Both the position numbers and the translations under genes were made by a program. From the sequence record PQ511150.1: a stretch of 64,000 bases of DNA; one strand, written 5' to 3'. This document shows, piece by piece, positions 1,686 to 3,104 of this stretch (the stretch's first letter is position 1; each line of letters opens with the position of its first letter). The notes under the pieces were generated by a model. That model worked only from the letters and a program-made list of their open reading frames with translations, ran no database searches and was not told where the DNA came from. Source of the DNA: Escherichia phage NHEP29.

Positions 1686-3104
1686 TTATGGATATGTATA
1701 GATGATACCAGTTTCCAAAGCAGTTTTATGGATGATGTATCCATTACGTGATTCTTGAACATCAACTTCCGGATAATCTTTCATCATCTTCTGAAGTGTG
1801 TAACGATGCAAGTAGTACTTACTATCTGGATCTTCAGTTTTCCAATCTTTACCTTCTTCAGCCATTTTTTGGATTTCATCCATAACCCACCAACCGCACC
1901 AGATGTAAGCTGAAGTACGATGTGGAAGAGGATGAACATAAGGTAGTTCACCTTCTGGTTCCGGAGCAACTTTATCAGTTACCTGAACTTGACCCGTCGT
2001 TTTAACTGTTTTACTATCATAATCAGTTGCAGTAACAACTGCAGTAACTTCAATAGTTTGACTTCCAACAGATGAAGTATCAACGGTATATACATTAGTT
2101 GATCCTTCTACCGGAGAAGAATCTTTCTTCCATGAATAAGTAATTTGTGCCGATTCTGGTGCACCAGTCACATTAGCAGTAAATGTAGCCGAAGCATCTT
2201 GCTGGACATTAATAGAAGGAGGAGTCAATGTAATCTGTGGATTCATTGTCTTCTTATTAACAGTCAGTGATACTTCATTAGAAGTAACTTCTTTTGCATT
2301 ATAATCATCAGCAGTTACTTGGGCTACGCATTTAATTCTTTTGACTCCATTTGTAGTTGGAGTATAGTTAAATGTAGAGTTAGTTTCTCCACCAACTTGA
2401 GAATCATCTACATACCATTGATATGTAGCAGACGCTCCAGCAGGTTGAGAAGCTAAGGCAGCAGTAAATTGAACTGGGGTTCCAATTACTCCAGCTGAAG
2501 GACTAGCAGGAGTTACTGCCAATGTAGTGGTCTGCGTCTTTTTATTAACAGTCAGTGATACTTCATTAGAAGTAACGCTCAGCGCATCATAATTTGCCGC
2601 AGTTACTTGAGCTACACACTTGATTTTTTTAACTCCGCTTGTGGTAGGAGTGTAATTGAATGTAGCGCTAGTCGCTTCGCTTACAGGAGAATCATCTACA
2701 TACCATTGATACGTAGCAGATGCACCTGATGGCTGCGAAGCCAAAGCAGCAGTAAATTTAACAGCTGTTCCAATTACTCCTGCTGGAGGACTATTGGGAG
2801 TTACGGCTAAGGTAGTCGTCTGAGTTTTGTTTTTGACTGTGATAGTTGTACTAATTTCAGCTGTTTCAGCTTCACTGTCAGGAACTGGATTTGTTGCAAC
2901 TACTTTAATAGTTTTCTGACCGGCAGGACCCTTTAATACATAACTAAAAGTTGCTGACGTTTCTTCCTGCGGAGCATCATCTACAGTCCAAGCATATGTA
3001 ATAGGTCCATCTCCAGTTTGACCACTGGGTGTAGCAGTAAACTGCTTAGTCTGATCTATAACTCCAGTAGGCGTTTTAGGAGTTATATCAACTGTAAAAG
3101 CCAT
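1686..3104 (-). CDS. hoc: highly immunogenic outer capsid protein Hoc with tandem Ig-like domains
   Basis: 472-aa ORF; N-terminus matches T4 Hoc as recalled; contains repeated Ig-like modules including two near-identical ~97-aa copies; position between rnlB and inh. Confidence 0.8.
   Translation of the reverse strand: MAFTVDITPKTPTGVIDQTKQFTATPSGQTGDGPITYAWTVDDAPQEETSATFSYVLKGPAGQKTIKVVATNPVPDSEAETAEISTTITVKNKTQTTTLAVTPNSPPAGVIGTAVKFTAALASQPSGASATYQWYVDDSPVSEATSATFNYTPTTSGVKKIKCVAQVTAANYDALSVTSNEVSLTVNKKTQTTTLAVTPASPSAGVIGTPVQFTAALASQPAGASATYQWYVDDSQVGGETNSTFNYTPTTNGVKRIKCVAQVTADDYNAKEVTSNEVSLTVNKKTMNPQITLTPPSINVQQDASATFTANVTGAPESAQITYSWKKDSSPVEGSTNVYTVDTSSVGSQTIEVTAVVTATDYDSKTVKTTGQVQVTDKVAPEPEGELPYVHPLPHRTSAYIWCGWWVMDEIQKMAEEGKDWKTEDPDSKYYLHRYTLQKMMKDYPEVDVQESRNGYIIHKTALETGIIYTYP
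2250..2834 (-). repeat. tandem duplication (2 x ~291 bp) encoding two near-identical Ig-like domains in hoc
   Basis: Protein repeats KKTQTTTLAVTP...SNEVSLTVN occur twice; corresponding DNA copies roughly 2250..2543 and 2544..2834 are highly similar. Confidence 0.85.

Follow-up and report, generated by a model that had tools for sequence, protein, structure and literature searches.

The hoc gene of Escherichia phage NHEP29 is very probably a common long allele, one that carries two copies of the second immunoglobulin (Ig)-like domain. In this reading, which we hold with high confidence, the two units are old and under selection, their arrangement is an inherited one that has also passed between genera, and the number of units shifts by unequal recombination. 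We analyzed a stretch of 64,000 nucleotides from the sequence record of this phage (PQ511150.1), referred to here as the window, and all coordinates are positions in it. The phage is T4-like and belongs to Mosigvirus, a genus that includes the Escherichia phages PTK and AlbertHofmann, to which the window was 97.9% and 97.7% identical, respectively, over 25 kb.

By homology, the gene under study is the hoc of T4-like phages. This identification follows from its matches to the T4 Hoc chain 5vf3_Z, to PTK and to Pfam, from the capsid-contact residues, from synteny and from four confidently modeled beta-sandwich domains. A phmmer search of the PDB aligned the predicted protein with 5vf3_Z (E = 6.4e-213) over aa 1-103 and again over aa 189-472, and the approximately 96 residues between these two segments had no T4 partner. 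Identity to T4 Hoc was 79-96% at the amino acid level, depending on the domain, and the Pfam matches (PKD, Ig_3, Ig_2 and I-set) were all over the cut-off. The initial annotation had given a 472-aa Hoc as compared to 376 aa in T4, and the length of the open reading frame and the T4 alignment both agree with this. The difference of 96 aa is exactly one repeat unit.

The gene order in the first 6 kb of the window is of the T4 type: rnlB, 24.2, 24.3, hoc and inh on the minus strand, followed by uvsW on the plus strand. The order around hoc was identical in PTK, KMB38, RB27 and GADS24, and the position homologous to that of inh carries an inh annotation in KMB38, RB27 and JS09. The inh stop codon overlaps the hoc ribosome-binding site (AAGGA, 3111-3115), and a hairpin begins 5 nt past the hoc stop codon (Table 1). 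This hairpin is a likely intrinsic terminator that would close an inh-hoc transcription unit. The T4 late-promoter motif TATAAATA was not enriched (10 matches versus 7.6 expected) and was absent from the minus-strand sequence immediately ahead of inh and of hoc; a scan for sigma-70-like promoters gave matches at chance level. The intergenic region between inh and uvsW (3777-3826) is just 50 nt long and is without a segE-like homing endonuclease gene.

Table 1. Features of the hoc region in the window, with the evidence for each.
Feature	Position	Strand	Evidence and remarks
Terminator-like GC-rich hairpin (AAGGGGC TTCG GCCCCTT) with T run	1664-1681	minus	Consensus scan
hoc (472 aa + stop), highly immunogenic outer capsid protein, five-domain allele	1686-3104	minus	ORF, T4 Hoc match, Pfam
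C-terminal capsid-binding domain, aa 377-472	1689-1976	minus	95.8% aa identity to T4 residues 281-376
Ig-like domain 3 (D3), aa 287-376	1977-2246	minus	Alignment; Pfam Ig_3/I-set at aa 289-356; 87.8% aa identity to T4 D3
Repeat unit 2, type b, Ig-like domain 2b (D2b), aa 191-286	2247-2534	minus	Counterpart of T4 domain 2
Repeat unit 1, type a, Ig-like domain 2a (D2a), aa 95-190	2535-2822	minus	Absent from T4; pLDDT >90
Ig-like domain 1 (D1), aa 1-94	2823-3104	minus	T4/RB30 alignment; beta-sandwich with pLDDT ~90; 78.7% aa identity to T4 D1
inh (hoc.1), prohead protease inhibitor	3114-3776	minus	ORF; directly upstream of hoc

The protein divides into five domains, and the D1 boundary coincides with that in the RB30 record. 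An AlphaFold2 model built from 45 homologues contained four all-beta domains over aa 1-376, with pLDDT mostly >90. Together with the gap in the T4 alignment, these four Ig-like beta-sandwiches bear out the proposal that the protein has one Ig-like domain more than T4 Hoc, and they supply the structural model of the domain array that had been suggested as a check. The best Foldseek matches were four-Ig arrays, for example Sidekick, Dscam and ICAM-5; they support the fold class and nothing more, and no Hoc structure was among the 50 PDB matches listed.

In the C-terminal domain the pLDDT was <60, and at this low confidence it is the sequence identity to T4, not the model, that supports capsid binding. 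Seven T4 Hoc residues reported to contact the major capsid protein gp23 or to be conserved (Y293, H295, H299, R300, W306, W309 and W310; PMC10385173) are all kept at an offset of +96 (Y389, H391, H395, R396, W402, W405 and W406). In D3, residue D342 corresponds to T4 D246.

Unit 2 was 90% identical to the T4 D2 at the nucleotide level and 91.7% identical at the amino acid level, while unit 1 shared 84% aa identity with the single T4 D2. The whole Hoc had a calculated mass of about 50.6 kDa, compared to 40.4 kDa for T4 Hoc, and a calculated pI of 4.84. Taken singly, unit a had a pI of 8.06 and unit b one of 5.05, and the remaining domains were at 4.2-5.1. By this calculation, D2a is the sole non-acidic part of an otherwise acidic fibre. 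Both D2 units contain an SLT motif (aa 183-185 and aa 279-281); in domain 2 of another Hoc, SLT is a reported MUC2-binding site (PMC11853027).

To describe the repeat itself, we used two repeat searches and a direct comparison of the units. TRF reported one array at 2248-2822 (period 288, 2.0 copies, 79% matches, score 742), and the second search agreed on a spacing of 288 nt. In codon register the repeat consists of 2 x 288 nt at 2247-2822, in frame and head-to-tail. Each unit thus encodes 96 aa, not the 97 aa first assigned to the modules. Identity at an offset of 288 was 0.79, compared to a mean of 0.33 and a maximum of 0.40 in 200 shuffles. Because the shuffles reach 0.40 at most, the repeat is far beyond chance.

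The two units are nevertheless well diverged. They differ at 60 of 288 nt (79.2% identity) and at 18 of 96 aa (81.3% identity), values that do not fit the description of the modules in the initial annotation as nearly identical in both protein and DNA. The longest in-register run of identical bases was 35 nt, and 39 of the 60 nucleotide differences were at third codon positions. Estimates by the method of Nei and Gojobori were dN 0.115, dS 0.85 and dN/dS 0.14. This fits a long separation of the D2 units, with both of them apparently under purifying selection.

Comparison with other phages gave the same picture. Unit 1 was 100% identical at the nucleotide level to unit 1 of NHEP11, 98% identical to that of PTK and AlbertHofmann and 92% identical to that of RB30 and RB27. 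Unit 2 was 99% identical to unit 2 of PTK and 97% identical to that of RB30 and RB27. Comparisons across types (a versus b), in contrast, gave only 76-79% nucleotide identity among PTK, AlbertHofmann, NHEP11, RB30 and RB27. Since each unit has positional counterparts elsewhere at 92-100% identity, the two-unit arrangement is older than the split between these alleles and is not recent.

One possibility for the origin of the second unit is a recent tandem duplication of domain 2 within the lineage of NHEP29 itself, as had been deduced from a supposedly high identity of the modules. The repeat is exactly in frame and head-to-tail with a period of 288 nt, and T4 has a single unit, as such an event would predict. 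However, the copies of a recent duplication should be nearly identical and mutually closest, and units 1 and 2 are neither: they are 79% identical with a dS of 0.85, and each is closer to its orthologues in other phages, in two genera, than to its neighbor. Moreover, no multi-unit allele that we sampled has units >85% identical in amino acid sequence. A recent duplication is therefore highly improbable. An even more remote explanation is that the true genome has one unit and that the second is an expansion artefact of the assembly. Beyond the general tendency of tandem repeats to be misassembled, nothing speaks for this. With 60 differences and at most 35 identical in-register bases, ordinary reads resolve the copies; the 1419-bp gene recurs in many independently sequenced phages, including a stand-alone RB30 hoc record; and the reading frame is intact, with both units giving confident Ig-like folds.

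A third explanation concerns how the two units came together and is compatible with an old arrangement. The divergence of the units need not date their joining, as an unequal crossover between diverged alleles yields diverged units at once. The two-unit allele could thus have arisen by unequal crossover of already diverged hoc alleles during co-infection, with units approximately 80% identical from the start, and it would still be old relative to NHEP29. Several observations are in line with this origin. D2 is highly mosaic, the 82 single-unit clusters showing 58 a/b patterns, and hoc alleles pass from one genus to another. KMB38 (below) demonstrates that units do undergo unequal crossover, and near-identical pairs of units are absent from all 46 multi-unit proteins. 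On the other hand, GADS24, the clearest pure ‘a’ single-unit allele that we examined, resembles a product of contraction, and an independent ‘a’ lineage was not seen. We regard this origin as possible, though the less probable course. Either way, the joining event predates NHEP29, and the D2 units, as judged from their substitutions, are old paralogues or former alleles that have both been kept by purifying selection.

The long form of hoc to which the NHEP29 gene belongs is already known and widespread. The GenBank record AY101183 (RB30 hoc, protein AAM52483) annotates five domains and a repeat_region for the intragenic repeat, and its domain boundaries are those that we derived for the window gene, which fits the long class with two D2 units (472 aa) as annotated for RB30. 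[quoted passage not shown] We found no dedicated open-access paper on the five-domain Hoc of RB30, although the GenBank annotation and the general statements on domain number exist. Comparison with the Hoc of related phages, which had been proposed as a check, thus upheld the extra domain but not its recency, and the two-unit form is shared and common.

To estimate how common this form is, we searched with the window hoc by megablast and obtained 661 phage records. Query coverage of 80% or greater is useless for telling long from short alleles because a single unit aligns to both copies in the query. Allele length was therefore read from the span of the match in the record, in an evenly stepped sample of the ranking in which 50 rows were full-length. 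Two units (1416-1425 bp) were present in 23 of these and one unit (~1131 bp, including T4) in the other 27, so that the frequency of the two-unit form, roughly half, is an estimate from 50 sampled rows and not a full count. At the protein level, 891 homologues were retrieved; of the 120 top-ranking clusters, 82 had one unit (376-379 aa), 29 had two (468-472 aa) and eight had three (568-570 aa; for example, UGKSEcP1/2). The hoc of phage slur08 (LN881733; 1995 bp, 664 aa) has four units of the D2 type, with pairwise identities of 71-85%.

The order of the units was a|b in all 29 two-unit clusters examined, with unit 1 rich in type a and unit 2 rich in type b. Some other variation was also observed among these records. 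AR1 and some other two-unit alleles are 1425 bp long (474 aa) owing to an insertion of 2 aa towards the end of D1 (‘SESEPETAE’). Unit 4 of slur08 was 98% identical at the nucleotide level to unit 2 of pSs-1. In T2 (NC_054931), the match spans 1117 bp but hoc is annotated there as two separate short coding sequences, of 354 and 426 bp, and the gene is apparently disrupted in that record.

To see how hoc compares with its neighbors, we determined nucleotide identity by region between the window and the Tequatrovirus RB27, using the flanks at 1390-1596, 3114-3776 and 3827-5341. Within hoc, identity was 84% for D1, 92% for D2a, 97% for D2b, 90% for D3 and 95% for the C-terminal domain. In contrast, it was 68% for 24.3, 68% for inh and 77% for uvsW. 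Because hoc is 84-97% identical to that of RB27 while the flanks are only 68-77% identical, much of the gene, most clearly D2b and the C-terminal domain, looks to have been exchanged laterally between genera, rather than to have diverged vertically along with its neighbors.

The number of units also changes by recombination within the gene. As markers, we used the nucleotide positions that differ between units a and b. In KMB38, a sister Mosigvirus with a single unit, the first 24 markers were of type a and the other 36 of type b, and there were otherwise no differences. Its hoc equals the PTK hoc minus exactly 288 nt (0 mismatches in 1131), with the crossover within nt 411-418 of the gene. 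Expansion from such a chimeric unit would give identical copies, and the difference between KMB38 and PTK is therefore a contraction from two units to one. This deletion is a very recent contraction by unequal recombination; an assembly collapse in the KMB38 record is less likely.

A contraction with a different breakpoint was found in GADS24, where unit a was kept (57 of 59 markers), unit b was lost and the breakpoint lies near the 3' end of the unit. The units of T4, JS09 and RB51 were mostly of type b with patches of type a, and the 82 single-unit clusters displayed 58 distinct a/b mosaic patterns in all. Taken together, these alleles indicate that unequal homologous recombination between the 288-nt units is active. 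The recent events that we saw were contractions only.

We also considered whether the loss of a unit is tied to a homing endonuclease gene beside hoc, since homing by SegE co-converts flanking sequence (PMC2330249). Such a gene lies between inh and uvsW in T4 (segE) and in KMB38 (a coding sequence annotated as ‘homing endonuclease’); PTK and GADS24 have none. This candidate was rejected because GADS24 lost its unit without one, and the window has none either.

None of the 46 multi-unit proteins sampled had units >85% identical in amino acid sequence. The absence of near-identical neighbors suggests that expansions occur when diverged alleles cross over during co-infection, or else that identical repeats do not persist for long. 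More generally, the second domain of Hoc may, in Tequatrovirus and Mosigvirus, be a surface cassette that is shuffled by recombination and variable in copy number, with one to four diverged units, ongoing contractions, trade between genera and no near-identical neighbors. This generalization is tentative, and we would put its prospects at a little short of even. We did not find an explicit prior account of the one-to-four-unit population pattern in the literature, although the extra domain itself has already been described.

By homology to T4 Hoc, whose binding domain is 96% identical, the C-terminal domain would sit at the center of each hexamer of the major capsid protein (gp23), and D1, D2a, D2b and D3 would project outward as a monomeric fibre. 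The extra D2 would lengthen this fibre by about one Ig domain, approximately a quarter of the 180 Å T4 fibre, and would add a second copy of the D2 surface. By analogy, we infer effects of the extra domain on both fibre length and avidity, and it is reasonable to expect that a longer fibre alters adherence, although we found no paper testing the functional consequence of the extra D2 unit.

If it is true that the number of units tunes fibre length and adherence to mucin or other surfaces, these phages offer a natural allelic series for the adherence-to-mucus model. Near-isogenic sister pairs such as PTK and KMB38, which are separated by a clean one-unit deletion, could be used to relate fibre length or D2 dosage to mucus adherence, aggregation and immunogenicity. 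The series of Hoc proteins with one to four D2 units is also relevant to the choice of scaffold in Hoc-based display. The window hoc itself is unexceptional and falls in an allele class with many members, and Hoc is a well-studied, non-essential capsid decoration protein.

Among known systems, the Mosigvirus phages PTK (MW512264) and AlbertHofmann/Bas47 (MZ501047) are the closest to NHEP29 over the whole region. Their hoc genes were 97.2% and 97.1% identical to that of the window, with the two units at 98-99%, and they differ from it by few substitutions, some of which lie in D3 and in the C-terminal domain. The hoc genes of RB30 (AY101183) and RB27 (KM607000, RB27_177) are likewise 1419 bp long and encode 472 aa in five domains, with the 288-nt repeat in the same position and an overall nucleotide identity of 91.7-91.9%. 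These two phages, however, belong to Tequatrovirus whereas the window is from a Mosigvirus, and D1 is the more diverged part (84%). T4 Hoc (376 aa; PDB 5vf3, 8t1x and others; model in PMC10385173) is of the same family and shares the capsid-contact residues, but it has a single D2, itself an a/b mosaic, and no counterpart of unit 1 of the window (aa 95-190). The proteins of UGKSEcP1/2 (568-570 aa, three units) and slur08 (664 aa, four units) likewise combine a conserved capsid anchor with Ig-like domains in varying number, while the Hoc of Serratia phage Muldoon, with 1174 aa and 10 Ig-like domains, is only distantly related (PMC10385173).
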